A stretch of DNA of 64,000 bases from a phage: assembly GCA_024672315.1 (NCBI GenBank), contig GCA_024672315.1_4714.1. One strand, 5' to 3'. The translations under genes were made by a program, and so were the position numbers. Shown here piece by piece: positions 3,284 through 52,010 of the stretch (within the stretch, counting starts at the first letter, position 1; every line of letters starts with the position of its first letter). Under the pieces are notes generated by a model. The model saw only the letters and a list, made by a program, of their open reading frames with translations. It made no database searches and was not told the origin of the DNA.

Positions 3284-4390
3284 TTAACGAATCTGTGGGA
3301 CGTTTCCGGTACGGAGCGCCTGGAGGATCGTCAGAAGATCGGAACCCGAGGTTGACGAACTGTTGGATTTTTCCAGTTGCTTGAAGCTTACGGTGGTCCC
3401 TTGATCCAAGCTGTGGAAATAGAAGGTCACCATCTCTTCAGCTTCGTCGATGATGATCAACTGCATTGCGAGGGCTTCAGCCATGACTTTCTGACGTGTG
3501 GTATAGTCAGATAAACGACGTCCGATCTTACGCTCGATGGCTTCCTGGTTAGCCTTAGAGATGATATAGGTGGAGGCAATGGCTCCAGAAGAAGGGATCT
3601 TTGTGCTCGCTGCAGCTTTTGCGGCATTGATGCGCGCAGCATTAACAGCCTTACGGATACCCTCTTTATCCATGCGTGAGATTCGTTTGTGTTCACGAAC
3701 CAGATCGCTAAGCAGGATCATATCGCTCCAGAAAGACAGCTCACCTGCCATCATGCGATGCCAACGTGCTCGCCAGGTGTTCTGTGGGCCGCCAATCGCT
3801 AAAATCGACGCAAGCACTTCCGCTGGAGAGCTTGCGATACGCATGCTGATATTCAGCGGCATTTTCATCGTTGCTTGACCATCGGTCAGCGTCACGGTTA
3901 AGAACTTGCCGGTGACCGCGTTCGCATCTTTGTTCAGCAATTCGATCGCTGCGTCGCTGGCTCCAACATCGATGCTATTTTTTTGTTTCCCCTGCAGGTT
4001 GAATCCTTTGTCATCAAGGAAAACAAGGCTTTTGCTATCCGCACTTTCCAGCGCTAATTTAACAGCCTTATCCGTCAGGTTAGCGTTACGGTTTGGATTC
4101 ACACGACCCAGCGTTTTATCGACACTGATATTACCCACCTGCATGATGGTATTCAACGCCAGTAAATAGAACCCGGTATACATGTTTTCAGCGGTGCGCA
4201 TGCAGTTGCCTAACGCATTGCGTGCGTCGCTATAATACAACTCACGTTCGAAGATCAACGGCGCGATAACGCGTGAAGGTTGTGAGAGTTCAACCAGCGA
4301 ACCTGGCTGGATAAGTTTATTAACTTCGTAGACTTTAGCGATACCGGACGCAACAACGTTAACAGCGTCGGCAATTTCTGATGCTACCAT
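3284..4390 (-). CDS. hypothetical protein
   Basis: 368-aa ORF, first gene of a minus-strand block; divergent from the plus-strand gene starting at 4425. Confidence 0.8.
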   Translation of the reverse strand: MVASEIADAVNVVASGIAKVYEVNKLIQPGSLVELSQPSRVIAPLIFERELYYSDARNALGNCMRTAENMYTGFYLLALNTIMQVGNISVDKTLGRVNPNRNANLTDKAVKLALESADSKSLVFLDDKGFNLQGKQKNSIDVGASDAAIELLNKDANAVTGKFLTVTLTDGQATMKMPLNISMRIASSPAEVLASILAIGGPQNTWRARWHRMMAGELSFWSDMILLSDLVREHKRISRMDKEGIRKAVNAARINAAKAAASTKIPSSGAIASTYIISKANQEAIERKIGRRLSDYTTRQKVMAEALAMQLIIIDEAEEMVTFYFHSLDQGTTVSFKQLEKSNSSSTSGSDLLTILQALRTGNVPQIR

Positions 4391-8642: not shown

Positions 8643-8687
8643 GCATAACCCTCCTCCAACCCAACAGGGAAGGAGGAGGGAATATGC
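8643..8687. promoter_or_regulatory. conserved GC-rich intergenic stem-loop, family copy 2
   Basis: gcataa CCCTCCTCC aacccaacagggaa GGAGGAGGG aatatgc; between convergent genes 5634..8627 (+) and 8690..11476 (-). Confidence 0.8.
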
Positions 8688-8689
8688 TG

Positions 8690-11476
8690 TTATCTTACGT
8701 TATTGCTATTCTGCTGTTCGCTGAACCAACCGTACACCTTGAGATCGGTACCGTATTTCAATGCGATATACGCATTCAATGCAGCACAGAACAAAGACAC
8801 GAATGCCCATATCAGCGAAGGATCAACATCTTCCGTTACCACCGGGAGAGTATTATCCGGTTCCCACGATGGAGAACTGTCCATGAACGTCGTGTACCAT
8901 TCCCGCCGTTGTTCTTCAGTGGTAAAGTCGCTATGAGGTTCCAACGCTTCTTTTGCCAGACGTCGATATTCGAACACATACGTTGCGAAAGCCGATGAGT
9001 TACCAGATTCGCCTTCATAGTTCGGATCCACCGCACAACAGAGTTCTGTGGAATCTAACAAAGCAATCGCTTGTGTGATGCTGTCGGCAGTGCCTGCACC
9101 ATAGAGCTCGATAGACCGCGAAAGCTTTTCACAGAACGTATTTAACGCGGCAGGATTGGACACCTGAAGGTCAAGGCCTAATGTCCACGGATAGTTACTG
9201 AACACGCCCGTAAACCGCGGCAGGACACCCAACAGATGTTGTCCGATTACAGCACGGTTATAAACAGCCCGGTTATAGACTTGAAACGCAGCCTCCAAGG
9301 CTTGGTTATAATGACGACGAAGTTCGTCACGCGAGTTGCGGAATCTGTTTGCCGCAAGACTCGTGGCTGCGACGCTACAAACATCGTAATTGGTGGACGA
9401 GAGCACAGTTTCGTTAAGATCGAACGATTCCTGTTTCAACGATCCGCTAACCGCTGCTGCTTCGCTGTTTGCTTTATCGACAACTGTACTCAAAGCGTTG
9501 ATGTAACGCTTAGCCCGGACTTCCAGCCATTGTGCGATACCGAGAACATCCACAGCGGCTTTAGCAAGGTCACGTGCGTTCACGATTTCGTTCTTCAATG
9601 CCCCTAAACCTTTATTCTCAGGCGAAGAGGCTTGTTGACGAATCATGCTGTTCAACATGGTAAGCAGATTATCCAACTCATGTCCACTGACCTTGTTACG
9701 TGCATCGGTAACTGGTCCTTGCAGGAATTTACGACAACCATCGTTGTATCGAATCAGTTTGTCCACATCGATAGATTCGTTCGTGGATTCCTTGAACTGA
9801 TCCTTCAATTCTTCACGGTAGTCATGGATTTCACTTGCGAGATTATCGATAGTGATACCATCGTGTCCAAGAAGAACTTTATTGAAGTTACCTTTCTCGA
9901 ATGCAAGAGCAAGACCTTCACGAATCTTAGCGAGTTTATCCTGATCGAGTTCGCGACCGTTCGATAGCTCTTTCACTTCCGAGCTGATTAGTGCCGCAAC
10001 GTTACCCAGATTGTCGGTAACGCCTTTGAATGTTCCCGACCAGATCGTTCCTGCTTCAGCATATTTCGCAATGGTCTGAATACCGACGGTGTGCAGCGAC
10101 GCTAAACGTTTCTTCGTGCCTTCGGTAAGCAGAGCGTCTTTAGCTCGCGTAAGCTGGCTGTTATTCGCTTCCGCCTGCTGAATCGCCGCTTTCGCACTTC
10201 CATTACGCCAGCTCTTAACCAGCCAATCGACCAAACGTTTTAGGATGTTGACGGTGTATTCCATCGTCCGCCGTAACGTTTCCCACGCGCTTTCTGCGGT
10301 ATAGATGCCGTACCCTTCCTGCACGAGATCGGTACGTGTGTATCCGTCGGCCGCTTCGATTTCTTCTTGCGTTTTATCCCAAAGCTCTTCGCTACGAACA
10401 GCAGTAGCGGTTTCAGATACCGACATAACAAGCTCAGCAACAGCTTCAGCGTAAGTCAGTACGGTACGCACACATTGCACTAACATGCGCTGGTAAACGA
10501 TACGTGCGTTTTGCAGACGTGCGATAACCGCTAAATAACCGATGTTATCAAGATTTTCATCGGTTTGAGCAGATTCAACGCGTTCTAACAGTTGTTTAAC
10601 TAGCGCCGCTGTTTCTGGGTAATCGTTCACGACGTCACGCATGATTCGTGATGCGAAAACCGCAGTACCTAAAACGGTGAGAAGTGTTTTACCGTCCCAT
10701 TCTTTCGGTGCCGCTACCGATTCAGCAGGGATGAGATTTCCCGCTTGGTCGAAGTACGGCATAAGGACATTGATATCAGTCGACGGAACAGCAGTAATTG
10801 CGTTGTACTCTTCATCCACGCCATCGTTGCCAGACGGTTGTAATGCGAGCGCTTGTTCGAGGATTTTGCGGTCAACAGCGTAAAGCGCCGACAGAGCCTG
10901 TGTTACCGCAACCAGATCAACGATCGGCGACCAGAGCTGTGCGAGCTTACCTTCGTATTTCTGTACAGCGATAGCAAGGTCTTCTTTTACGTCTGGATGA
11001 TCGATCAAACCACCCAATGTTTCATGGATGGCAGAAAAACGTTCAGAATGCGCTTGAGTCAATGCGGTAAAATCGTCAACGTACGACGCATTTTCTTCAA
11101 GACGCGTAAGTTCCTGCTCCAGAAGATCTTTTACTTGCGTGGCGGATGCGTTTCTCAACTGTTCCCCGATAATCGCGATGGCTTTATCGACAACACGGCA
11201 GGCTTCATTGAAACCGGTCGTTGAAGGTAACTCGGTCCATAATGCCAGCGGCTTACCTTCCATTGCGTCAGGAAGGGAATATGACAGCATTGCTAGTTGT
11301 TGACGTGATACCTGTTTGTCACGATGTAATGTTTCTTTCAACGCCAGAAGCTCATCAAGACCCACGCTGCTAGGGATCGTGGGATGTGATACGGCGTTGA
11401 TATTTCCTGTCAATGACTCAAGAACCAATAAACCATTTTCAGCGGAAGATAACCCTGCTTTAAGGTATTTGTTCAT
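8690..11476 (-). CDS. hypothetical large alpha-helical protein (928 aa)
   Basis: Long ORF, helical/coiled-coil-like composition; convergent with 5634..8627; GGAG RBS sits directly 3' of a perfect 12-bp hairpin. Confidence 0.85.
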   Translation of the reverse strand: MNKYLKAGLSSAENGLLVLESLTGNINAVSHPTIPSSVGLDELLALKETLHRDKQVSRQQLAMLSYSLPDAMEGKPLALWTELPSTTGFNEACRVVDKAIAIIGEQLRNASATQVKDLLEQELTRLEENASYVDDFTALTQAHSERFSAIHETLGGLIDHPDVKEDLAIAVQKYEGKLAQLWSPIVDLVAVTQALSALYAVDRKILEQALALQPSGNDGVDEEYNAITAVPSTDINVLMPYFDQAGNLIPAESVAAPKEWDGKTLLTVLGTAVFASRIMRDVVNDYPETAALVKQLLERVESAQTDENLDNIGYLAVIARLQNARIVYQRMLVQCVRTVLTYAEAVAELVMSVSETATAVRSEELWDKTQEEIEAADGYTRTDLVQEGYGIYTAESAWETLRRTMEYTVNILKRLVDWLVKSWRNGSAKAAIQQAEANNSQLTRAKDALLTEGTKKRLASLHTVGIQTIAKYAEAGTIWSGTFKGVTDNLGNVAALISSEVKELSNGRELDQDKLAKIREGLALAFEKGNFNKVLLGHDGITIDNLASEIHDYREELKDQFKESTNESIDVDKLIRYNDGCRKFLQGPVTDARNKVSGHELDNLLTMLNSMIRQQASSPENKGLGALKNEIVNARDLAKAAVDVLGIAQWLEVRAKRYINALSTVVDKANSEAAAVSGSLKQESFDLNETVLSSTNYDVCSVAATSLAANRFRNSRDELRRHYNQALEAAFQVYNRAVYNRAVIGQHLLGVLPRFTGVFSNYPWTLGLDLQVSNPAALNTFCEKLSRSIELYGAGTADSITQAIALLDSTELCCAVDPNYEGESGNSSAFATYVFEYRRLAKEALEPHSDFTTEEQRREWYTTFMDSSPSWEPDNTLPVVTEDVDPSLIWAFVSLFCAALNAYIALKYGTDLKVYGWFSEQQNSNNVR

Positions 11477-19910: not shown

Positions 19911-19957
19911 AGCCCCTCCCCCTGGCGGAAGCCGGAGGGAGGGGTGAGGTTTATGCG
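19911..19957. promoter_or_regulatory. GC-rich intergenic stem-loop (related family)
   Basis: CCCCTCCC cctggcggaagccgga GGGAGGGG tgaggtttatgcg; 8-bp outer stem with inner GGC/GCC stem and GGAA loop; between the ORF-poor region and minus gene 19951..20436. Confidence 0.7.
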
Positions 19958-20436
19958 CGTTCGTTGCCAACCGTTACTTTGTAGTCAGCGTCGGTTAAGA
20001 AAATAGACAGGAATCCATGTTCTTTGCAAATCTGACTAAGGATGTCAGCAATGATTTCGTTGATCATCGGTTTGTTTGCAAGGGCATAGATGTACCCGGG
20101 TGTAAAAGAAAGTGCATGATTGATCATAGGCTCATGAGAAGCCAAGATAAGGATCACGTGATGCTTCCCATCGTCGGTAACGACCGCTTGCGTAGACACG
20201 AAGAAATCAGTGAAGCAGCAGCGATCACAGGCTTTAGGTATATACAAATCACCCAGAGCTTCGTCGCGTGCTTTTATGTGTGTTTCAGGGGTGATGCTGC
20301 TAAGTTGATCTTCAGCGAGATCCAAGACATCCTCAATCGTTTTAAGAATAGCGTTGCGGAAATCCTCGCGGTAGAATGGGATGATATCACGATCGTTCAT
20401 GTAATCGCCGGATTCGATAGTAAAGTTGATGTTCAT
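19951..20436 (-). CDS. hypothetical protein
   Basis: 161-aa acidic ORF with AGGAG RBS; preferred over the overlapping plus-strand ORF 20017..20439 by strand context and RBS. Confidence 0.7.
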   Translation of the reverse strand: MNINFTIESGDYMNDRDIIPFYREDFRNAILKTIEDVLDLAEDQLSSITPETHIKARDEALGDLYIPKACDRCCFTDFFVSTQAVVTDDGKHHVILILASHEPMINHALSFTPGYIYALANKPMINEIIADILSQICKEHGFLSIFLTDADYKVTVGNERA

Positions 20437-20546
20437 TGAATGCTCCTAGTGGTTATGTCGATTGATTGACGTGTTAATTTATGTTTGATGAGGTATACTT
20501 GAAACTACAAATAAGGCTCTTGGCGTTGCTGTTATGGTTCAGTTCT

Positions 20547-23699: not shown

Positions 23700-24194
23700 T
23701 TACTCTTCTGTGTTTTCATTGTCAGGATCGTAGTGGAATTCGAACAGCCCTGAACCGTCGTGTCCGTTGATTGTTAGTATAACTGGCATATCGAATCCTC
23801 GGACGCGCGAATGAAAACACTGTGCTAATTTTAGTTTGGCGTATGCCGCTATTTCATTGACGGCAATACACGACTCACCTGTTATACTCAGTATAACGTC
23901 GATACTAACAATGTTGTCGTGCAACGCAAAACGCCAGCGATCGATACGATTATTATCTTTAGCAGCTGTCTCGTTTACGAGATAGACTTTATCGTCAACC
24001 GACAAAGCAGGTCTCCAGCAACTGTTGTTCCTTAAATTCGCCTCGAATCGCAGCATCGTTGTGTCGATAATATCCCAACATGCAACTAGTACGGTATTGG
24101 GCACTAAATTGAGAAGAGCTGATACCCTATCCTTTATTTTAAGTGCTTCCGCAGGACGCCCGCAAATACCATGCATTTCAACTTTCTTATCCAT
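23700..24194 (-). CDS. hypothetical small acidic protein, probable paralog family member
   Basis: ORF track starts at GTG 24200; ATG at residue 3 has GAGGTG RBS; C-terminal ..FEFHYDPDNE resembles the family. Confidence 0.7.
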   Translation of the reverse strand: MDKKVEMHGICGRPAEALKIKDRVSALLNLVPNTVLVACWDIIDTTMLRFEANLRNNSCWRPALSVDDKVYLVNETAAKDNNRIDRWRFALHDNIVSIDVILSITGESCIAVNEIAAYAKLKLAQCFHSRVRGFDMPVILTINGHDGSGLFEFHYDPDNENTEE

Positions 24195-24237
24195 ATTCAC
24201 CTCTTTTTTAATCTAAATGTTAGTTGGGATAGGGCGA

Positions 24238-24840
24238 TCACATGCTTTCTAACATATCGATGATCATGGAACCCATACCGAAACTCGGTCTCTCGCCGAT
24301 GTACTCAGCAAGCTGACGATGAACGTCTTTTGGATTTCCTTCTTCACCATCAGCATCGATGTAGACCGAAAAAGAAAATGAATCGGAATCCACACTGATA
24401 ACCAGACGGCGTTCATTGCGTTCCTTAAGTGTATCGACAATAGCTGCTTTCAGTATTGCGATCGCATTCATCGCGTGCATGATATCTCCATCGGGTTTCG
24501 GCAGATCGATCTTTTCTTTCAGGTCGATATTGATGTTGGTTACAATTGGGTTGAGGTCGACCTTGACATAATCGTTGGGATACATGCGAATAATCGCACG
24601 ATCGATATCTGAACCGTAAAAGTCAACACGTGGCTTTAACACCTCTTTGTTTGGATCCATGTTTTCATCCATCCCTGCCTGCAAGAAACGTTCGACGTTA
24701 TCCAGTTCACGATAGACTGACGCTTCGATTTCTTTCAGATAGTTGGCTGCGGTTTCATGTTCTTTACGTAGCTCGTCTTTAAGGAGCTGTACTGTGGTTT
24801 CACTGGAACGAATGCTGTTCGCGAATTGGGTAATTGACAT
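24238..24840 (-). CDS. hypothetical protein
   Basis: ORF track starts at TTG 24870; first ATG (residue 11, MSITQFANSIR...) has AAGGAA RBS. Confidence 0.7.
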   Translation of the reverse strand: MSITQFANSIRSSETTVQLLKDELRKEHETAANYLKEIEASVYRELDNVERFLQAGMDENMDPNKEVLKPRVDFYGSDIDRAIIRMYPNDYVKVDLNPIVTNINIDLKEKIDLPKPDGDIMHAMNAIAILKAAIVDTLKERNERRLVISVDSDSFSFSVYIDADGEEGNPKDVHRQLAEYIGERPSFGMGSMIIDMLESM

Positions 24841-24888
24841 ATCGAATTCCTTAAATTCTCTTGGGTTCAATTAATGATGAAAAGCTGT

Positions 24889-24915
24889 AAAAAAAGAGGT
24901 GGGGCGAACCCCACC
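24889..24915 (-). terminator. rho-independent terminator candidate
   Basis: Hairpin GGTGGGG cgaa CCCCACC; on the minus strand it is followed by a T7 run (plus-strand aaaaaaag just upstream); directly downstream of 24941..25366. Confidence 0.7.
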
Positions 24916-24940
24916 AAAACGTCAGACACACGCAGGAAAA

Positions 24941-25366
24941 TTAATTCAGTGATGCATATAAGGCATAACGACTGTAGATCTCAACCGCCGGTCCGTTATG
25001 TGTTAACAGACCGTCTCGGCCGTAATACTGGAAAAATGAATAACGTTTGTCGAAGTGATAAACAAAAGCAATGTCTTTGCCGTCAAAACCCATGACGCGC
25101 GGCCTGTTTTTATCTAGCAACGCTTTGACTTTTAACAGTGTTGCCGCACGCGCTTTAACGTTAGGGATTAATCCATCACAATCGATATAAACCGTGTAAC
25201 CTGTTTCAGATGTTGCGACGGTTGTATTGCGATTGACGCGAAAGATTTTTGTTTTGTACGTATCATCTTCAAGAATTGGGTTTTGTTTTTCGTATTTTCG
25301 TTTACGTAGAAATTCTACAACGGTGATATAGTTAGCGGTAATATGCCCGGTTATAGCTTGTAACAT
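24941..25366 (-). CDS. hypothetical protein
   Basis: 141-aa ORF; preceded by the conserved ~110-bp upstream block also found before 51588..51905. Confidence 0.7.
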   Translation of the reverse strand: MLQAITGHITANYITVVEFLRKRKYEKQNPILEDDTYKTKIFRVNRNTTVATSETGYTVYIDCDGLIPNVKARAATLLKVKALLDKNRPRVMGFDGKDIAFVYHFDKRYSFFQYYGRDGLLTHNGPAVEIYSRYALYASLN

Positions 25367-25500
25367 CTTGACATCCTTTTATATTGGATTGATTGCAATT
25401 GTCTTAAATAGATGATAAGATATTTTGCTCTTATCACTAAGGTAATGCTTACGCGTCGCGTTCATGATGCATGGCATCATGAAGGTAATATAGTCGTGAA
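25364..25500 (-). promoter_or_regulatory. conserved upstream regulatory block, copy A (5' region of 24941..25366)
   Basis: Coding-strand sequence ..TTTCACGACTATATTACCTT..(spacer)..GCAATCAATCCAATATAAAAGGATGTCAAG-ATG; near-identical blocks precede 51588..51905; copy A carries an extra 8-bp-stem palindrome (CATGATGC atg GCATCATG). Confidence 0.7.
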
Positions 25501-25530
25501 ATAAACTGCGTTAACACGAAATAAAAACAG

Positions 25531-25589
25531 CATAGAAACCTCCTCCCCCATCCTTCAAGAGGACGGTGGGAAGAGGGAGAGATTAAATG
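25531..25589. promoter_or_regulatory. GC-rich intergenic stem-loop (related family, imperfect)
   Basis: catagaaa CCTCCTCCCCCATCC ttcaaga GGACGGTGGGAAGAGGGAGAG attaaatg; same catagaa(a) left flank as copy 1; downstream of 25583..25984. Confidence 0.55.
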
Positions 25590-25984
25590 TCGTGGACGGC
25601 AACGCCGTTTAACCAACAATACAGCTTAACGCGACAGGAATACCGCTTCGTTGCAGCAACCATTTCATCGCGTAAACGCTGGTAGATTTCATCCTGGTGT
25701 TCACGATCAATGGGGTAATCAGCCCAACATTCGATCATGACGTCACCATTCGTCAGAATCGTCGTACGCATCCTGTCCTGGATACGGCGGTCTTTCCCGG
25801 CATTAGGGAAATACATTCCTTCGGTACGAATAAGGTCGCCGCAGGGCATGACTAACCATTCGTTCGTTTTGCCGGTATTCTTATAATCCATTACGGCTTG
25901 CATTGCGGTGTCAACGCTAAAAGAAACATAATTCCAAACGGATGTCCAACGATAGATTGCGGGTTGTTCGAGTGTTTCGTTCAT
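25583..25984 (-). CDS. hypothetical protein
   Basis: 133-aa ORF with AGGAAAAG RBS. Confidence 0.7.
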   Translation of the reverse strand: MNETLEQPAIYRWTSVWNYVSFSVDTAMQAVMDYKNTGKTNEWLVMPCGDLIRTEGMYFPNAGKDRRIQDRMRTTILTNGDVMIECWADYPIDREHQDEIYQRLRDEMVAATKRYSCRVKLYCWLNGVAVHDI

Positions 25985-26030
25985 GGAGTGCTTTTCCTAT
26001 TTTTATTTTCTGCACAGGATAAATTCAACG

Positions 26031-26076
26031 GCATAAAGCCCTTCCCTGCCCTTATATGGGGCGGGAAGAGTTTATG
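26031..26076. promoter_or_regulatory. GC-rich intergenic stem-loop (related family)
   Basis: gcataaag CCCTTCCCTGCCC ttatat GGGGCGGGAAGAG tttatg; stem with two bulges; TATG-like flank on both strands. Confidence 0.65.
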
Positions 26077-26197
26077 ACCGCAATGAGAATCTCTCACGAC
26101 AAGCTCACGACGATTATCGCATCACCCCGCGAGTGAGGGAGATCAGGATCACCTCCTACGTCGTAACGACAGCAATCCCGTTACGTCGCTTTAGACG

Positions 26198-26824
26198 TTA
26201 TGCAAAGCGACGCATGTAACCTGCCAGATAGTTACGCGTATCGAAGTAGGCAATTTCAGGAATTGCGATATTAAGGTCGATAGCGCGGATTTCAACTTGG
26301 CGACGGCTTTCATCATAGATCGCATCCATCAGACGCAGTACTGTCAGGAAAGCCATGCGGGTATGGTAGTCCAGCGGCATGTTGTCGATACCGCGATACA
26401 GATAACGGTTTGCATTAAATGCCCCTTCGCTGTTATCTTTCCAGATCTTCAGAATATCAGCAAAGGCGGTGCGGAAAACCTCAGGATTATCCACATCCAG
26501 TAACGCACGGAAAGCAGACATTAAAGACCGCTGATGACGGATCAACGACTGCGGTGTTTGCGGCATGGTCGGACCCATTTCTTCCGCGTATTTCTGGAAC
26601 GGGGCAACCAGGGTTGCGGCACGAGAAGCCACGATAGAAACAGCTGGCGATTCTTTCGCCGCTGGTTTCGCAGGCTTTTCTTCAACAACGGTTTCCTTCT
26701 TCTCAACAGCGACCGTTTCCGGCTGTGCTACAACATCACTAACCGGAGCATCTGCAACGGTGGTTTCTACCGCAGTAATCTCCTCGTCCATTTTTGCAGA
26801 ACGTTGGTCTTTATTCTTGCTCAT
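26198..26824 (-). CDS. hypothetical protein
   Basis: 208-aa ORF, acidic low-complexity N-terminus; directly downstream of the RNAP beta-prime-like gene. Confidence 0.7.
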   Translation of the reverse strand: MSKNKDQRSAKMDEEITAVETTVADAPVSDVVAQPETVAVEKKETVVEEKPAKPAAKESPAVSIVASRAATLVAPFQKYAEEMGPTMPQTPQSLIRHQRSLMSAFRALLDVDNPEVFRTAFADILKIWKDNSEGAFNANRYLYRGIDNMPLDYHTRMAFLTVLRLMDAIYDESRRQVEIRAIDLNIAIPEIAYFDTRNYLAGYMRRFA

Positions 26825-26849
26825 GTTTATTTCCTTTTGTTTAACAAGG

Positions 26850-28151
26850 TTAACTAATATAAAGTTCAGGATCGTAAGGCGCTAACGATACACTGGCGTT
26901 ATGCATTGCTTTCATCATAGTGTTCATGAAAACGTTGTTTACACCGGTGATCTCTGCCCCGATCGCATCTGGGGTTGGAGCCATCGCGTTACCGCAACAG
27001 GTAGCACAGTATTCCAATGGGCCTGCTTTACAACGTTGAGGATCACGTAACTTGATGGTTTGTCCTTCCAAGGAAGCGAGTAATTCAGCATCGATAAGTT
27101 TAAGAGCCGCGCCGTCGATCATGTAACGGCCGACAAGCAGCTTATCTTTGATGTGGTCGCGGTTTACCGTGAAAAGAATATGCTCGTGGGTACCGCAGTC
27201 GTCCATCGTGATTTTAAGGTTCTGTGTCGCACGTTGTGATTCTTTCGCCGTCTGTCCAGCTAAAGCGGTCAACGCACCACGTGAGAACGAACCGGCACGT
27301 GCACTGTTGTTGTACTCCGCCCAATGGTCGACACGCATCCCTTCGGCCAGGCTGTGTGTGATAACGTTACGTTTACCGGGGTCAACGAAGTCGGCTTCAA
27401 CCCCCATCATGATGTGCGTTTTCTTTCGAGTATTACCGAAACTCTTGCCTGGGTTAATATAGAACCCTTCCGACTCATCGCCCTTAAAGGATTCCTTATC
27501 CATTTTGGTTAGCGTGGCTTCGAGTTTGATCAGTTCTTCAGGCGTGAACTTACCTTCCTCTTGTAAGCGCGCCAACTCTTTATCACGATAGGCAATAATA
27601 TCATCATCGACCGTTAACGCTTTATCACTCATTGACGGGACAATTAAACGGTTGATAGCGGTTAATGCGCTGATATTGTTGGTGAATTTCTTCACTTCGC
27701 TTGCGTACAACGGACCAATAGGACGTTCATTAGGATCGGGTATTCCCTCTTCGGGATCGTCCGCTACGCGTGGCGCAATCAGTGACTCCAGTGTGCCGCT
27801 GGTCAACCGTCCTGCCTGATATTCAATCTGAATACCGAAAGCATCATAAAGGACGTACATATTGAACAACGCTTCACCGAAGGTTGTGGTGGTTGTGTTC
27901 TTAACCGACGGTAAATCGCCAGGTGCGAGCTCCAACGGCTCCCAGAAACTCAACAAGGGTTTTGTTGGCTCGGTTTCCCATTGGTGTTCTTCACCGTCGA
28001 TGGTAACCGTAACGACGTTACCTTGACGACGTAATTTAGGCTGATACTTCTCAGCGCCGCCTTCCGTAAAAGCAAATGCGTCGTTAATCCATTCAAGATA
28101 TCGGTAGTGCCCTTCACGCATCGCGTAAAGGAAATATTCACGAGGTGTCAT
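26850..28151 (-). CDS. multisubunit RNA polymerase beta-prime-like subunit, middle fragment (bridge helix through Zn-binding segment)
   Basis: 433 aa; ..EGMRVDHWAEYNNSARAGSFSRGALTALAGQTAKESQRATQNL.., TMDDCGTHEH and RCKAGPLEYCATCCGNAM...DAIG...MMKAMHN align by eye with E. coli beta-prime ..[36 protein letters not shown].., TEDDCGTHEG and SCDTDFGVCAHCYG...EAIG...LTMRTFH (recalled from memory); the NADFDGD catalytic motif is absent, so the subunit is split. Confidence 0.75.
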   Translation of the reverse strand: MTPREYFLYAMREGHYRYLEWINDAFAFTEGGAEKYQPKLRRQGNVVTVTIDGEEHQWETEPTKPLLSFWEPLELAPGDLPSVKNTTTTTFGEALFNMYVLYDAFGIQIEYQAGRLTSGTLESLIAPRVADDPEEGIPDPNERPIGPLYASEVKKFTNNISALTAINRLIVPSMSDKALTVDDDIIAYRDKELARLQEEGKFTPEELIKLEATLTKMDKESFKGDESEGFYINPGKSFGNTRKKTHIMMGVEADFVDPGKRNVITHSLAEGMRVDHWAEYNNSARAGSFSRGALTALAGQTAKESQRATQNLKITMDDCGTHEHILFTVNRDHIKDKLLVGRYMIDGAALKLIDAELLASLEGQTIKLRDPQRCKAGPLEYCATCCGNAMAPTPDAIGAEITGVNNVFMNTMMKAMHNASVSLAPYDPELYIS

Positions 28152-32232: not shown

Positions 32233-32277
32233 ACATAGCCCTCTCCCTTCCCTTACGGGTTGGGAGAGGGCTTATGC
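32233..32277. promoter_or_regulatory. conserved GC-rich intergenic stem-loop, family copy 3 (inverted orientation)
   Basis: acatag CCCTCTCCC ttcccttacgggtt GGGAGAGGG cttatgc; near-identical to the reverse complement of copy 1; between convergent macro-domain gene and 32288..32662. Confidence 0.8.
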
Positions 32278-32287
32278 TGTTATGTTA

Positions 32288-48344: not shown

Positions 48345-48602
48345 TTAAAATGCGTTGATTGGGTTGTTCAGCGCTTTATCGCGGATTTGAATCGCCGCCA
48401 ACATCGCTTTCTGGTACGAATCGTAAGCATCAACAGAAACCGTCATATCAACCAATTTCTCTAATACGGATTCAGCCGCTTTTACACGAACGCGGAACTT
48501 GGTGATGGCGTTATCTTTGTTACGGTAAACCGTGATATGGTGCAGCGGCTGAACGTTAGTTTTATTTGTTTTAACGGATTTAGTTGCTTTGATCGTTTTC
48601 AT
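48345..48602 (-). CDS. hypothetical protein
   Basis: 85-aa basic ORF with AAGGAA RBS. Confidence 0.65.
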   Translation of the reverse strand: MKTIKATKSVKTNKTNVQPLHHITVYRNKDNAITKFRVRVKAAESVLEKLVDMTVSVDAYDSYQKAMLAAIQIRDKALNNPINAF

Positions 48603-48649
48603 GATGATTTCCTTCTTTATTAGGATGATTACATTTAGTCAGTTTAACA

Positions 48650-49445: not shown

Positions 49446-49757
49446 TTAACCTCTACCGTCAAGCCATAGGTTGTATTTATCCCGAACATACGGATCGCGA
49501 TAAATACGTCGATAGACTTGATGTGGTATAAACTCGCAATGTACGAGTTCGTCGCTTAATTTATGACGTCGCTCCATACCGTTGTGTATACGACGTATCT
49601 CCCGGATATTAAAGGTTGTTTTATTCAAGAGAATAGACATAATGGCGGATCGATGATCCAGATTAAAGATCGCCATCACGCTTCGTATCTCACGTAAAAC
49701 AACTTCTCTATCGACAAGGATGCGATTAGTTAACTTAAGATTCTCCGTGATACCCAT
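49446..49757 (-). CDS. hypothetical protein
   Basis: ORF track starts at 49814; ATG at residue 20 (MGITENL...) has GAGGA RBS and reduces overlap with the upstream gene to ~23 nt. Confidence 0.55.
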   Translation of the reverse strand: MGITENLKLTNRILVDREVVLREIRSVMAIFNLDHRSAIMSILLNKTTFNIREIRRIHNGMERRHKLSDELVHCEFIPHQVYRRIYRDPYVRDKYNLWLDGRG

Positions 49758-51528: not shown

Positions 51529-51587
51529 GATAAAGATCCTCGTTGAAATAAAATCGGTATAAAGGCCCCCCATTTAGGGGGACCTGA

Positions 51588-51905
51588 TTAGTTTGCGCGT
51601 AAGAAACGACCCAGAACCGTTACGATTGGAAACAGCCCTGTAACAGTATCATCGCCCGAAAACATCATCATTGTTCCGTTAACGGTGATGAAACGGATGT
51701 CTGTTGCGGACCCATCGATAGCGACAAAACGCATCGAGTTCGGTGGAAGGTCCTCAACCACTTCCACGAGATACTCGCGATTGTCAAAGGCTTCTTTAAC
51801 ACGACGCATGAAACGAATCAATGTTCCTTCCGCGTCGGCTTCCAAATGACCTAAGATATCGCGATTATTACGAATAGCAAATACAGCCATTTTAAACATA
51901 CACAT
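51588..51905 (-). CDS. hypothetical protein
   Basis: 105-aa ORF; preceded by the same conserved upstream block as 24941..25366. Confidence 0.65.
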   Translation of the reverse strand: MCMFKMAVFAIRNNRDILGHLEADAEGTLIRFMRRVKEAFDNREYLVEVVEDLPPNSMRFVAIDGSATDIRFITVNGTMMMFSGDDTVTGLFPIVTVLGRFLRAN

Positions 51906-52010
51906 CTTGACATCCTTTTATATCGGATTGATTGCTAATAATTCAAGGTGAAGCTGATTACTGCATTGCTTCACCTAAGTAATATAGCCGTGAAAATTAA
52001 TGTATTAACC
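51903..52010 (-). promoter_or_regulatory. conserved upstream regulatory block, copy B (5' region of 51588..51905)
   Basis: Coding-strand ..TTTCACGGCTATATTACTTA..(spacer)..GCAATCAATCCGATATAAAAGGATGTCAAG-ATG; identical to copy A over ~33 nt at the start codon and ~20 nt in the distal block. Confidence 0.7.

Follow-up and report, generated by a model that had tools for sequence, protein, structure and literature searches.

Probable composite early-expression cassettes upstream of two unrelated orphan genes in a Goslar-like chimallivirus

Why should two genes whose products have nothing in common be preceded by nearly the same DNA? The question is raised by positions 25364..25500 of the window, by which we mean the whole 64,000-nucleotide stretch of phage DNA that was analysed. 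Gene A (24941..25366, minus strand) encodes 141 aa and is a homolog of Goslar gp075, and gene B (51588..51905, minus strand) encodes 105 aa and is a homolog of gp105. Comparison of the two proteins confirmed that they are unrelated, as had been proposed from the sequence, and searches of Pfam and PHROG with both genes and their neighbours gave no matches, so that all are orphans by this measure. The window has 94.5% identity to Escherichia phage Goslar over the 3 kb compared (24000..27000), which would make the phage a relative of Goslar and a member of the Chimalliviridae. Our answer, which we hold to be probable, is that the two upstream regions are composite early-expression cassettes of a Goslar-like chimallivirus. 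They would represent the early-gene switch of Goslar-like nucleus-forming jumbo phages, a known kind of element that is met here in a new phage.

The sequence-only reading had described a single duplicated block of about 110 bp. The shared strings are real and lie where they had been placed, but pairwise alignment of copies A and B resolves them into two conserved blocks, one of about 40 nt that includes GTTAA...TTTCACGRCTATATTAC and one of 33 nt, parted by unalignable sequence of unequal length; the leader middles are not homologous, and there is no contiguous duplicate of about 110 bp. The similarity extends past the ribosome-binding region. The distal block, TTTCACG(A/G)CTATATTAC, lies at 25501..25485 and 51995..51979, and these are the sole two matches in the window even when three mismatches are allowed. 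The proximal block, GCAATCAATCC(A/G)ATATAAAAGGATGTCAAGATG, has its copies on the minus strand at 25396..25364 and 51935..51903, which agree at 32 of 33 positions. Between them the conserved blocks of A and B flank unrelated hairpins. Both cassettes, each with its own hairpin, are found in every lineage sampled, including those in which coding identity is 61-84%.

The arrangement that we propose is as follows. A promoter of about 39 nt, TTAAYNCA-N4-5-TTTCACGRCTAYATTACYTWRGTGA, would be recognised by the multisubunit virion RNA polymerase, which the phage injects along with its DNA, and transcription would start in GTGA, about 6-8 nt past TATATTAC. The transcript would then begin with a stem-loop of promoter-specific sequence, its 5′ arm at or a few nucleotides from the 5′ end, followed by an AU-rich linker and by the shared block AATCAATCCRATATAARAGGATG-N7-AUG, which would supply the Shine-Dalgarno sequence and its context. 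The unrelated orphan genes A and B would thus be transcribed and translated in the same mode, each as a single-gene unit ending in a terminator. Finally, the cassettes may have been copied and partly homogenised by ectopic recombination among promoter copies, which would account both for the sharing of the two cassette ends by unrelated genes and for the occurrence of a 43-nt hairpin module at different promoters in different genomes. For the window phage, the start site, the timing and the polymerase are assigned by analogy with its relatives.

The evidence for a promoter is found in the distal block. On the minus strand, copy A consists of an upstream TTAACGCAGTTTA element and TTTCACGACTATATTACCTTCATGATG (25475..25513; TATATTAC at 25492..25485) and scores 35.1 bits with a PWM built from the motif, against a maximum of 21.8 bits in shuffled sequence; copy B, with the element TTAATACATTAAT and TTTCACGGCTATATTACTTAGGTGAAG (51969..52007; TATATTAC at 51986..51979), scores 38.4 bits and starts about 7 nt past the stop codon of the upstream gene. 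The two are orthologous to Goslar sites 86714 and 113806, respectively, and a PWM scan of the window finds exactly these two sites. It is the extended motif alone that is significant, since TATATTAC by itself is not above chance in the window (2 found, 2.4 expected); likewise, TTTCANNNNTATATTA with two mismatches occurs there at chance level, and signal is separated from noise by the full motif or the PWM only. The suggestion of the sequence-only reading that TATATTAC is the phiKZ early-promoter motif proved correct: a published table (PMC7058600, Table 2) gives TATATTAC for phiKZ and TTTRARR_BTATATTACDWHDGTG for 201phi2-1. The extended block fits the family consensus, and copy B fits that of 201phi2-1 through the trailing GTG. 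From these comparisons, TTTCACGRCTATATTAC would be the core of a chimallivirus early promoter for the virion RNA polymerase.

The same motif recurs throughout the Goslar genome. With a cut-off of 27 bits there are 12 sites, each of them on the minus strand and pointing the same way as the gene that follows; 11 are intergenic, and the other lies inside the doubtful gp047 ORF. Their cores read TATATTAC or TACATTAC. TTTCACGRC immediately precedes the core in 9 of the 12, as it does in both window sites, and farther upstream, in the -20/-30 region, there is TTAAYNCA or TATTGAAAAAAA. An AT-rich core, an upstream TTTCA or T-rich element and many co-oriented copies are the features of virion-RNA-polymerase promoters in the Chimalliviridae, and the motif matches the published early-promoter consensus sequences of phiKZ, 201phi2-1, OBP, N1M2 and EL, as well as the extended -10 box with upstream T-rich element and the -10/-20/-30 conservation that have been described. 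The related form TTTCA-N4-TATATTACTTAGGTG is intergenic and co-oriented with the downstream gene in SPN3US, Vibrio phiKT1028 and Aeromonas LAh10. One Goslar site lies upstream of chmA, the nuclear shell gene. An RNA-seq study of Goslar places the 5-mpi start of chmA within the 91 nt before the start codon, and that stretch begins 2 nt ahead of the promoter motif. As for the enzyme, several RNA polymerase beta-type subunits are annotated in Goslar, which on that annotation would encode split multisubunit virion and non-virion polymerases; one is orthologous to 26850..28151 of the window, and gp196 is treated in the literature as a virion polymerase subunit. No description or map of Goslar early promoters was found in the searchable literature.

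Putative terminators occur around the two units. Immediately 5′ of promoter A, a terminator-like hairpin predicted by RNAfold (CCUCUUCCC..GGGAGGAGG with a UUUCUAUGCUGUUUUUAUUU tail; 25519..25576, minus strand) ends the upstream unit of the gp076 homolog; it is one of a family of terminators repeated in the window and resembles the conserved phiKZ terminator motif. Gene A is followed by an intrinsic terminator, GGTGGGGTTCGCCCCACC and a T-run (24898..24915, minus strand), which is annotated as such in Goslar and makes gene A a single-gene unit. After gene B there is a terminator-like hairpin of the phiKZ type, GGUCCCCCU-AAAU-GGGGGGCC followed by UUUAU (51558..51585, minus strand; RNAfold, -19.1 kcal/mol), which resembles the published phiKZ motif and is not called by a simple scan for T-runs.

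Downstream of each promoter, the leader folds. The native hairpin of leader A, GUGAUAAGA-(8-nt loop)-UCUUAUCAU (25412..25437, minus strand), is predicted to begin within GTGA, the start region of the ancestral promoter core. That of leader B, AGGUGAAGC-(13-nt loop)-GCUUCACCU (51946..51976, minus strand; -12.8 kcal/mol), had escaped the sequence-only reading; its 9-bp stem begins inside the conserved AGGTG start region, in the same place as the palindrome of copy A and unrelated to it. The hairpin begins at the predicted transcription start, and its sequence is unlike between promoters. Across orthologous leaders, which are related and not independent in such tests, stems are kept, loops are replaced and changes from G-C to G-U are tolerated. 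For leader A, the stem is conserved and the loop hypervariable in 11 distinct orthologs, with 88.6% of cells paired versus 36-58% when the partner is slid; for leader B, 13 orthologs have an invariant stem and a variable loop. A covariation test of the leader-A stem in the 11 distinct orthologs gave nothing significant, the stem being simply conserved. Searches of Rfam gave no match for copy A, and for copy B a snoRNA match at chance level only (16.5 bits against a gathering score of 45).

Hairpins are also a tendency of the promoter family. The 40 nt after the 12 Goslar promoters have a mean folding energy of -8.0 kcal/mol, versus -4.1 for shuffled sequence (0 of 300 shuffles reach it) and -6.0 for genome windows (P about 0.017), and 4 of the 12 promoters have no convincing hairpin. 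A scan of IMG/VR with TATATTACYTAGGTG, in which most matches lacked the upstream TTTCA element, left 25 distinct promoters on other chimallivirus contigs, whose leaders average -7.8 versus -3.9 kcal/mol for shuffles (Wilcoxon P = 4.5e-5); compared with controls taken 300 nt farther on, the wider set gives P = 0.056, and so, measured against real sequence, the enrichment is modest. For most SPN3US-like leaders, and for most of the 12 in Goslar, the 5′ arm starts 0-3 nt away from the conserved GTGA.

There are several possible roles for such a hairpin. Most likely, it protects early mRNA from decay that depends on the 5′ end; attenuation of transcription is less likely. A broader form of the second idea is that the hairpins attenuate or terminate transcription close to the promoter, giving short 5′ RNAs, or else are DNA structures that aid opening or escape by the virion polymerase, and do not stabilise mRNA at all. 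Abundant short RNAs derived from 5′ UTRs by premature termination have been reported for phiKZ and 201phi2-1, U-rich stretches follow the hairpins of A and B, UCUUUU often stands right after the hairpin in SPN3US-like leaders, and the conserved promoter sequence AGGTG overlaps with the 5′ arm. However, the stems are short and AU-rich, their tails are poor T-runs, a terminator scan calls none of them, and the genes directly downstream must be expressed. The tolerance of G-C to G-U changes points to structure at the level of RNA rather than DNA. We consider attenuators or DNA structures unlikely, and retain protection of the 5′ end as the favoured role.

The proximal block raises a different question, namely how much of it serves ribosome binding. 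Copy A (GCAATCAATCCAATATAAAAGGATGTCAAGATG, 25364..25396, minus strand) contains the Shine-Dalgarno sequence AAGGA (25378..25374), a 7-nt spacer and the start codon (25366..25364), and copy B (GCAATCAATCCGATATAAAAGGATGTCAAGATG, 51903..51935, minus strand) likewise contains a Shine-Dalgarno sequence and the start codon, where the homology between A and B stops. In our reading the 33-nt block is a Shine-Dalgarno region confined to these two orphan genes. No other copy with three or fewer mismatches was found in the window, nor in shuffled sequence, and a search of Goslar and the window for further copies or an antisense partner, with up to 12 mismatches, gave only one marginal candidate, which matches at 23/33 positions and lies upstream of the gp097 homolog. 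A metagenome scan with a 19-nt degenerate form of the block returned 83 hits, mostly chance, and only about 12 of the loci are Goslar-like. The core of copy A, AATCAATCCRAYAYAARAGGATG, is kept in orthologs in which coding identity is only 61-76%, and leader identity is 85% where that of the coding sequence is 61%. In L041, however, the high conservation of the leader could reflect mosaic recombination and not selection, because the terminator region downstream is also 88-98% identical. There is no fixed difference between A and B in about 13 genomes each. A variant position (AAAAGG or AAGAGG) is concordant between the two copies in 4 of the 5 genomes that carry both, which falls short of proving gene conversion at the block.

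It is conceivable that the block does more, and that AAUCAAUCCRAUAUAARAGGAUG is a post-transcriptional operator through which an RNA-binding protein (a RegA-kind repressor, ChmC or CsrA) or a small RNA co-regulates the two mRNAs. Such an operator would add to the cassette reading. Conservation takes in the Shine-Dalgarno sequence and what lies upstream of it, about 23-25 nt in all, far beyond what ribosome binding needs; the block is limited to two unrelated genes per genome and is kept, without a fixed A-versus-B difference, at coding identities of 61-84%; predicted folds of both leaders place its GGAU mostly in base pairs; and AUAARAGGAUGU resembles the CsrA SELEX consensus. Against this, the search of Goslar and the window found no complementary RNA on either strand, the binding partner is only hypothetical, neither copy has an Rfam match, the predicted pairing partners are unlike in A and B, and no common partner emerged when long-range pairing of the block was sought within each mRNA. 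Moreover, the most divergent copies (L042 and L044) are altered at several positions, and recombination and mosaicism can account for the conservation too. An operator function is thus a tentative addition, on the unlikely side, to a block that we read chiefly as a translation initiation region.

Evidence for exchange between promoters comes from copy A. The inserted palindrome that had been noticed there is part of a 43-nt indel relative to Goslar, where it is absent; its stem, however, has 10 bp and not 8. This leader module (25448..25490, minus strand) consists of the hairpin (25483..25461, with 25483..25474 paired to 25470..25461 around a 3-nt loop) and GCGACGCGTAAGC, and is flanked by direct repeats, ATTACCTT, that derive from the 3′ end of the promoter. 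At 96-98% identity, L043 and L129 carry the module at the gp075 promoter, and L018 (IMG/VR 3300011560, 98% identical) carries it at another promoter, of the gp021 type. At the gp075 promoter it is present or absent in two separate lineages (window versus Goslar, L043 versus L040); a different module, of 51 nt, occupies the same junction in L013 and L093, and an indel of a whole gene adjoins the cassette. Sharing of the module between promoters would indicate promoter-to-promoter recombination. These are few events, which do not fix its direction or mechanism, and the repeated presence and absence could reflect repeated deletion between the flanking repeats instead of repeated gain.

A more ambitious scheme may be built on these observations. 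Early-promoter cassettes might form a recombining system in Goslar-like chimalliviruses, and probably in others of enterobacteria, with hairpin modules and translation-initiation blocks being exchanged and parts of leaders thereby passing from one gene to an unrelated one, and the AAUCAAUCC...AAGGAUG block (with weaker ATCAAT and AATCGAC strings in other early leaders) might be a dedicated RNA signal, for example for binding of a factor or for handling of early mRNAs as they leave the injection vesicle. Taken as a whole, we judge this scheme rather unlikely. The opposite extreme is that the likeness of A and B is a neutral relic of one recent segmental duplication or gene conversion, with a proximal block that is unconstrained beyond its Shine-Dalgarno sequence. 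Ectopic exchange of promoters clearly occurs in the clade, the genomes are mosaic and the homology ends at a gene boundary; but the presence of both cassettes in all lineages sampled, down to coding identities of 61-84%, implies that the arrangement is old, yet no A-versus-B difference has become fixed, and near-identical flanks around an unalignable middle are unlike the product of a single recent copy. We find a neutral relic decidedly improbable, and prefer old cassettes whose ends have been partly homogenised.

The sequence-only reading had also seen a promoter in the proximal block, with a sigma-70-like -35, an 18-bp spacer and a -10 (TATAAA) ending about 14 nt before the ATG. The distance is in fact 11 nt, TATAAA lacks the final T of a -10 element, and a sigma-70 scan calls neither copy. 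A second, later start, made by host sigma-70 polymerase or by the non-virion polymerase of the phage, would be in keeping with the early and middle starts reported for phiKZ chmA and with the weak -35-like hexamers found 17-18 bp upstream of TATAAA. Those hexamers, however, lie outside the conserved block and differ between the copies, and transcription beginning about 7 nt past TATAAA would set out from within or beyond the Shine-Dalgarno sequence, so that the mRNA would lose it and keep a leader of 4-5 nt. In addition, published transcription in the family is independent of the host polymerase, neither block contains TATG, the core of the phiKZ late promoter, in which each of the four bases is needed (the Goslar enzyme may prefer otherwise), and the homology ends exactly at the start codon, as it would for a translation initiation region. 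A second promoter here is highly unlikely. A distal block serving as a plain sigma-70 early promoter for the host enzyme, of the kind found in T4-type phages, is scarcely credible. In both copies TATATT is preceded, at a spacing of 16 bp, by a weak -35-like hexamer (TTAACG, TTAATA), but such matches are no commoner than in shuffles. Conservation in the 12 sites falls on TTTCACGRC, where the spacer would be, and on the AC and then GTGA that follow the hexamer, and not on the -35 hexamer; the motif is common to chimalliviruses of Pseudomonas, Vibrio and Aeromonas whatever the host; and early transcription in the family is rifampicin-resistant and takes place in the injection vesicle, where the virion polymerase is also present.

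A third gene had been linked to the pair through CAATCAATC, upstream of 19951..20436. The string is present (20468..20460, minus strand), though 23 nt and not 28 from the ATG of this gp070 homolog, and it stands outside the cassette family, the PWM scan finding no early-promoter match upstream of the gene. The window contains four occurrences against 0.89 expected; two of the four are the A and B copies, so the remaining count is near chance. Nor is the 9-mer invariant, since the A and B blocks of sister genomes have CAACCAATC, CAAGCAATC or TAATCAATC in its place. The link to a third gene is not supported. As a separate observation, ATCAAT-type strings show a weak, post hoc enrichment in early leaders.

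What follows from the cassettes is partly practical, and current understanding is not overturned by any of the results. They amount to a predicted promoter map for the virion polymerase in the Goslar clade, the E. coli model for nucleus-forming phages, with 12 sites in Goslar and two in the window, and the map is directly testable with existing RNA-seq data or by mapping of 5′ ends. Genes A and B are flagged as likely immediate-early, self-contained units with identical signals for transcription and translation, which may help in picking candidates for host takeover and in designing expression cassettes for engineered jumbo phages. The exchange of hairpin modules suggests that regulatory cassettes help to shuffle chimallivirus genomes, as PeSLs do in T4-type phages.

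Finally, we compare the cassettes with known systems. Stem-loops that stabilise mRNA from its 5′ terminus, as in the 5′ UTR of E. coli ompA, share with the present hairpins a position at or a few nucleotides from the (here predicted) 5′ end, a conserved stem of variable sequence and an association with highly expressed mRNAs; the distance from end to stem that defines them is, for our hairpins, a predicted one. Operators common to several phage early mRNAs, of which the T4 RegA targets are an example, are likewise conserved sequences overlapping the ribosome-binding sites of unrelated early genes, whereas the proximal block has two carrier genes per genome and no known cognate protein, and may be a mere shared translation initiation region.

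As whole units, the cassettes are most like the promoter-early stem-loops (PeSLs), mobile regulatory cassettes of T4-type phages (Arbiol et al. 2010, PMC2839356). Both are intergenic composites of a terminator or stem-loop, an early promoter, a Shine-Dalgarno sequence and a start codon; both are repeated in the genome and stand before orphan genes; and here, too, differences between close relatives map to the cassettes and look, on the few events seen, like recombination between copies. They differ in that the PeSL promoter is of the sigma-70 type and ours would be that of the phage's own multisubunit polymerase, in that the variable hairpin here follows the promoter, at the predicted 5′ end of the transcript, and in that many gene swaps are associated with PeSLs, compared with a 43-nt leader module and one adjacent gene indel here. 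As promoters, the Goslar-clade sites have fixed bases of their own (the CACGRC spacer, and Y at core position 3 in some copies, TACATTAC), and 12 are predicted per genome versus 28-32 sites in phiKZ. In other respects they follow the phiKZ-like early promoters, with the same AT-rich, extended -10-like core, the upstream TTTCA or T-rich element and a further conserved region upstream, with positions at the heads of co-oriented gene runs that include the nuclear shell gene, and often with the conserved terminator hairpin of the family just before the promoter.

The window resembles Escherichia phage vB_EcoM_Goslar, a member of the Chimalliviridae and a jumbo phage that forms a nucleus: the two share 94.5% identity across a 3-kb stretch around copy A. 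The comparison set consisted of the complete Goslar genome together with relatives out of IMG/VR, metagenomes and bacterial assemblies (L numbers denote loci of relatives, gp numbers Goslar genes). The two look-alike upstream regions lie on the minus strand: copy A (25364-25500) precedes gene A, the gp075 homolog (24941..25366, minus strand), and copy B (51903-52010) precedes gene B, the gp105 homolog (51588..51905, minus strand). No Pfam or PHROG family was found for either protein, and comparison of the two products revealed no relationship, as the sequence-only reading had held. Each gene forms a single-gene unit, because a canonical intrinsic terminator lies 3′ of gene A and a phiKZ-type hairpin followed by UUUAU lies 3′ of gene B. 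Assemblies labelled E. coli O157, Salmonella enterica and Shigella flexneri contain Goslar-like contigs of 244-248 kb (L040, GCA_027262955.1; L043, GCA_041342935.1; L045, GCA_031658775.1), which implies that such phages accompany the isolates sequenced from several enterobacterial genera or are contaminants of them.

The shared upstream regions are genuine, but the earlier account of them as a single duplication is wrong. All of the strings named in that account are in the window as given; pairwise alignment, however, resolves the proposed contiguous 110-bp duplicate into a distal block of ~40 nt and a proximal block of 33 nt, separated by a stretch that is unalignable and differs in length between the copies. 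The distal 17-mer has only two sites in the window with up to 3 mismatches permitted, and the proximal block, identical in A and B at 32 of 33 positions, has no third copy at ≤3 mismatches in the window and none in shuffles. Taken alone, TATATTAC is at chance frequency (2 in the window vs 2.4 expected), while CAATCAATC occurs four times (0.89 expected), two of these being copies A and B themselves.

Judged by its sequence, the distal block is a predicted chimallivirus early promoter, a known kind of element. The proposed link of TATATTAC to phiKZ is borne out by the published consensus table, which gives TATATTAC for phiKZ, TTTRARR_BTATATTACDWHDGTG for 201phi2-1 and related motifs for OBP, N1M2 and EL (PMC7058600). 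According to reviews and transcriptome papers, phiKZ-like early promoters are conserved at -10, -20 and -30, combine an AT-rich extended -10-like box with a T-rich element 5′ of it, and are transcribed by the injected virion RNA polymerase. The minus strand of the Goslar genome carries 10 copies of TATATTAC and the plus strand none; in the same genome a 27-mer position weight matrix yields 12 sites above 27 bits (shuffled-genome maximum, 21.8), all 12 on the minus strand and oriented with the next gene (gp004, gp021, gp040, gp047, gp075, gp105, gp159, gp175, gp182, chmA/gp246, gp214 and gp200). Eleven are intergenic; the other, site 49741, is within the annotated gp047 ORF, the start of which is doubtful. 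The window has exactly two sites, orthologous to those of Goslar, scoring 35.1 bits (copy A) and 38.4 bits (copy B). The consensus is TTAAYNCA-N4-5 (or TATTGAAAAAAA), then TTTCACGRCTAYATTACYTWRGTGA, and copies of TTTCA-N4-TATATTACTTAGGTG, traced from weak BLAST signal, are also intergenic in Salmonella phage SPN3US, Vibrio phage phiKT1028 and Aeromonas phage LAh10, each oriented with its downstream gene. A Goslar RNA-seq study placed the 5-minute start of the nuclear-shell gene chmA within the 91 nt preceding its start codon, and this stretch begins 2 nt ahead of the promoter motif.

A sigma-70 reading of the distal block is disfavoured, in that hexamer matches are no commoner than in shuffles and the conserved bases would fall in the spacer and after the hexamer. 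The gp047-internal match (49741..49715, within Goslar NC_048170 49584..49772; 28.7 bits) is followed by an 8-bp hairpin; probably the annotated start is wrong, or the promoter drives a shorter ORF or gp046.

To this known early promoter are added two features, one of which is a promoter-specific 5′ hairpin. The hairpin of copy B, AGGUGAAGC-loop-GCUUCACCU, starts within the conserved AGGTG; leader A (the transcript between predicted start and start codon of gene A) has in its Goslar form GUGAUAAGA-loop-UCUUAUCAU at the equivalent position; and copy A of the window has UUCAUGAUGC-CAU-GCAUCAUGAA downstream of the promoter. Over 40 nt from the start region, the mean folding energy of the 12 Goslar promoters is -8.0 kcal/mol, vs -6.0 for random minus-strand windows (P ~0.017) and -4.1 for shuffles (0/300 reach the observed value); a convincing hairpin is absent at four of the 12. 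The 25 distinct promoters taken from further chimallivirus contigs in IMG/VR average -7.8; their shuffles average -3.9 (Wilcoxon P = 4.5e-5), and windows lying 300 nt downstream average -5.3 (P = 0.056). Among 11 distinct orthologs the leader-A stem is conserved, with G-C to G-U changes tolerated, no significant covariation and most variation in the 8-nt loop; across 13 orthologs of the leader-B hairpin, the loop varies and the stem does not. We infer a stem-loop that acts at the RNA level, most likely in a protective role. The main rival explanation is an attenuator, which is favored by the short 5′UTR-derived RNAs reported in phiKZ and 201phi2-1 and by U-rich tails downstream of the hairpins.

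In SPN3US-like leaders (L163, L164, L179, L219, L222, L225), UCUUUU often stands 3′ of the 5′ hairpin, an arrangement that looks like a weak attenuator just past the start site; TAATCTT, AATCTTT and ATCTTTT occur in 6/35 SPN3US-like early leaders vs 0.4-1.1 expected.

The proposal that CAATCAATC links the two copies to a third gene is not supported: the 9-mer is near chance frequency, it varies among sister genomes even inside blocks A and B, and the matrix finds no early-promoter match upstream of its occurrence at 20468..20460. ATCAAT is present in 3/12 Goslar early leaders (gp021, gp075 and gp182) vs 0.29 expected (P ~0.003, a post hoc count). ATCAAT/AATCAATC and AATCGAC[CT]AT recur at no fixed position between 5′ hairpin and Shine-Dalgarno in several unrelated early leaders, with occurrences at 20460-20468 of the window and in SPN3US-like loci (L048, L159, L199, L212 and L225, the last carrying TTCAATCCGACCATCAAGGAAT). 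Being post hoc, this recurrence is recorded as unexplained and not as a finding.

The second added feature is a translation block common to two genes. In the proximal block a Shine-Dalgarno AAGGA, for which many relatives have AGAGGA, is separated by a 7-nt spacer from the start codon, where A/B homology ends. It is found only at genes A and B, with no other match in Goslar or the window exceeding 23/33 and shuffles reaching up to 22/33. One start-codon-aligned 23/33 match, GTAATCATCCTAATAAAGAAGGAAATCATCATG (48600-48632, minus strand), 5′ of the gp097 homolog, is marginal because shuffled genomes come so close. The suggestion of a sigma-70 promoter here is not sustained, since a sigma-70 scan makes no call and a start after TATAAA would delete the ribosome-binding site; the phiKZ late-promoter core TATG is likewise absent from both copies. 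The core AATCAATCCRAYAYAARAGGATG is kept in orthologs with coding sequences 61-76% identical (A) or amino acids 84% identical (B), and between Goslar and L041 the leader is 85% identical and the coding sequence 61%. No position has a base that consistently tells A copies from B copies, and of five genomes having both, four carry the same AAAAGG/AAGAGG variant in A and B. Rfam gave no match for these leaders, and no pairing partner is common to A and B. We conclude that the cassette ends 3′ in this shared block, from which both genes take an identical translation start region; the block may also act as a dedicated operator.

The gp075 homolog (24941..25366 in the window) is itself mosaic. Compared with Goslar 84700..86716, L041 is 46-70% identical over the first two thirds of the coding sequence and 88-98% identical from the gp075 3′ end through the terminator into the beginning of the next gene, so recombination besides selection could preserve leader likeness. 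N-termini differ wholly among lineages (MLQAITGHI, MVREVFGYI, MTINLLNHV). Within the proximal block, AUAAAAGGAUGU (25371-25382 and 51910-51921, minus strand) resembles the CsrA high-affinity consensus, RUACARGGAUGU.

The palindrome described as inserted in copy A is indeed an insertion relative to Goslar, but the unit extends beyond it to a 43-nt module (25490..25448), bounded by ATTACCTT repeats that duplicate the 3′ end of the promoter. The module is 96-98% identical at the gp075 promoter of L043, a Salmonella-assembly contig with a gp075 coding sequence just 75% identical, and of L129, a metagenome contig; that promoter lacks it in Goslar, L007, L040, L041, L042, L095, L111, L131 and L136. 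In L018 (IMG/VR genome 3300011560) a 98% identical module, with a flanking repeat of 14-15 nt, follows a gp021-type promoter, a diverged version is at the Goslar gp200 promoter, and L013 and L093 have another module, of 51 nt, at the junction in the gp075 promoter. Such a pattern is that expected from recombination among promoter copies and is evidence of exchange, and recurrent deletion across the flanking repeats may partly account for presence and absence. An extra gene adjoins the cassette in two relatives. This ORF of ~150 codons stands 3′ of the gp076 homolog and 5′ of promoter A (L007, ~3440-3960, minus strand; L013, ~3830-4300) and is absent from Goslar and the window (junction 25583/25582); with one edge at the gp076 stop codon and the other within the terminator hairpin, the indel abuts the regulatory cassette.

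We found no description of the Goslar early promoter in the searchable literature, and the analysis is useful chiefly in supplying the Goslar clade with a promoter map that can be tested. The window also has near-identical minus-strand terminator hairpins, CCCTCTCCC..loop..GGGAGAGGG, then TTCTATGCTGT (366-410, 8643-8693 and 32239-32280; variant, 25519-25576), with one copy directly upstream of promoter A, and this family is similar to the conserved terminator motif of phiKZ, BCCYCCCCHWWDGGGRRGGBYTTATKYYGT. Finally, the putative exchange of leader modules parallels the recombination described between copies of PeSL (promoter-early stem-loop) elements, the mobile regulatory cassettes of T4-type phages.
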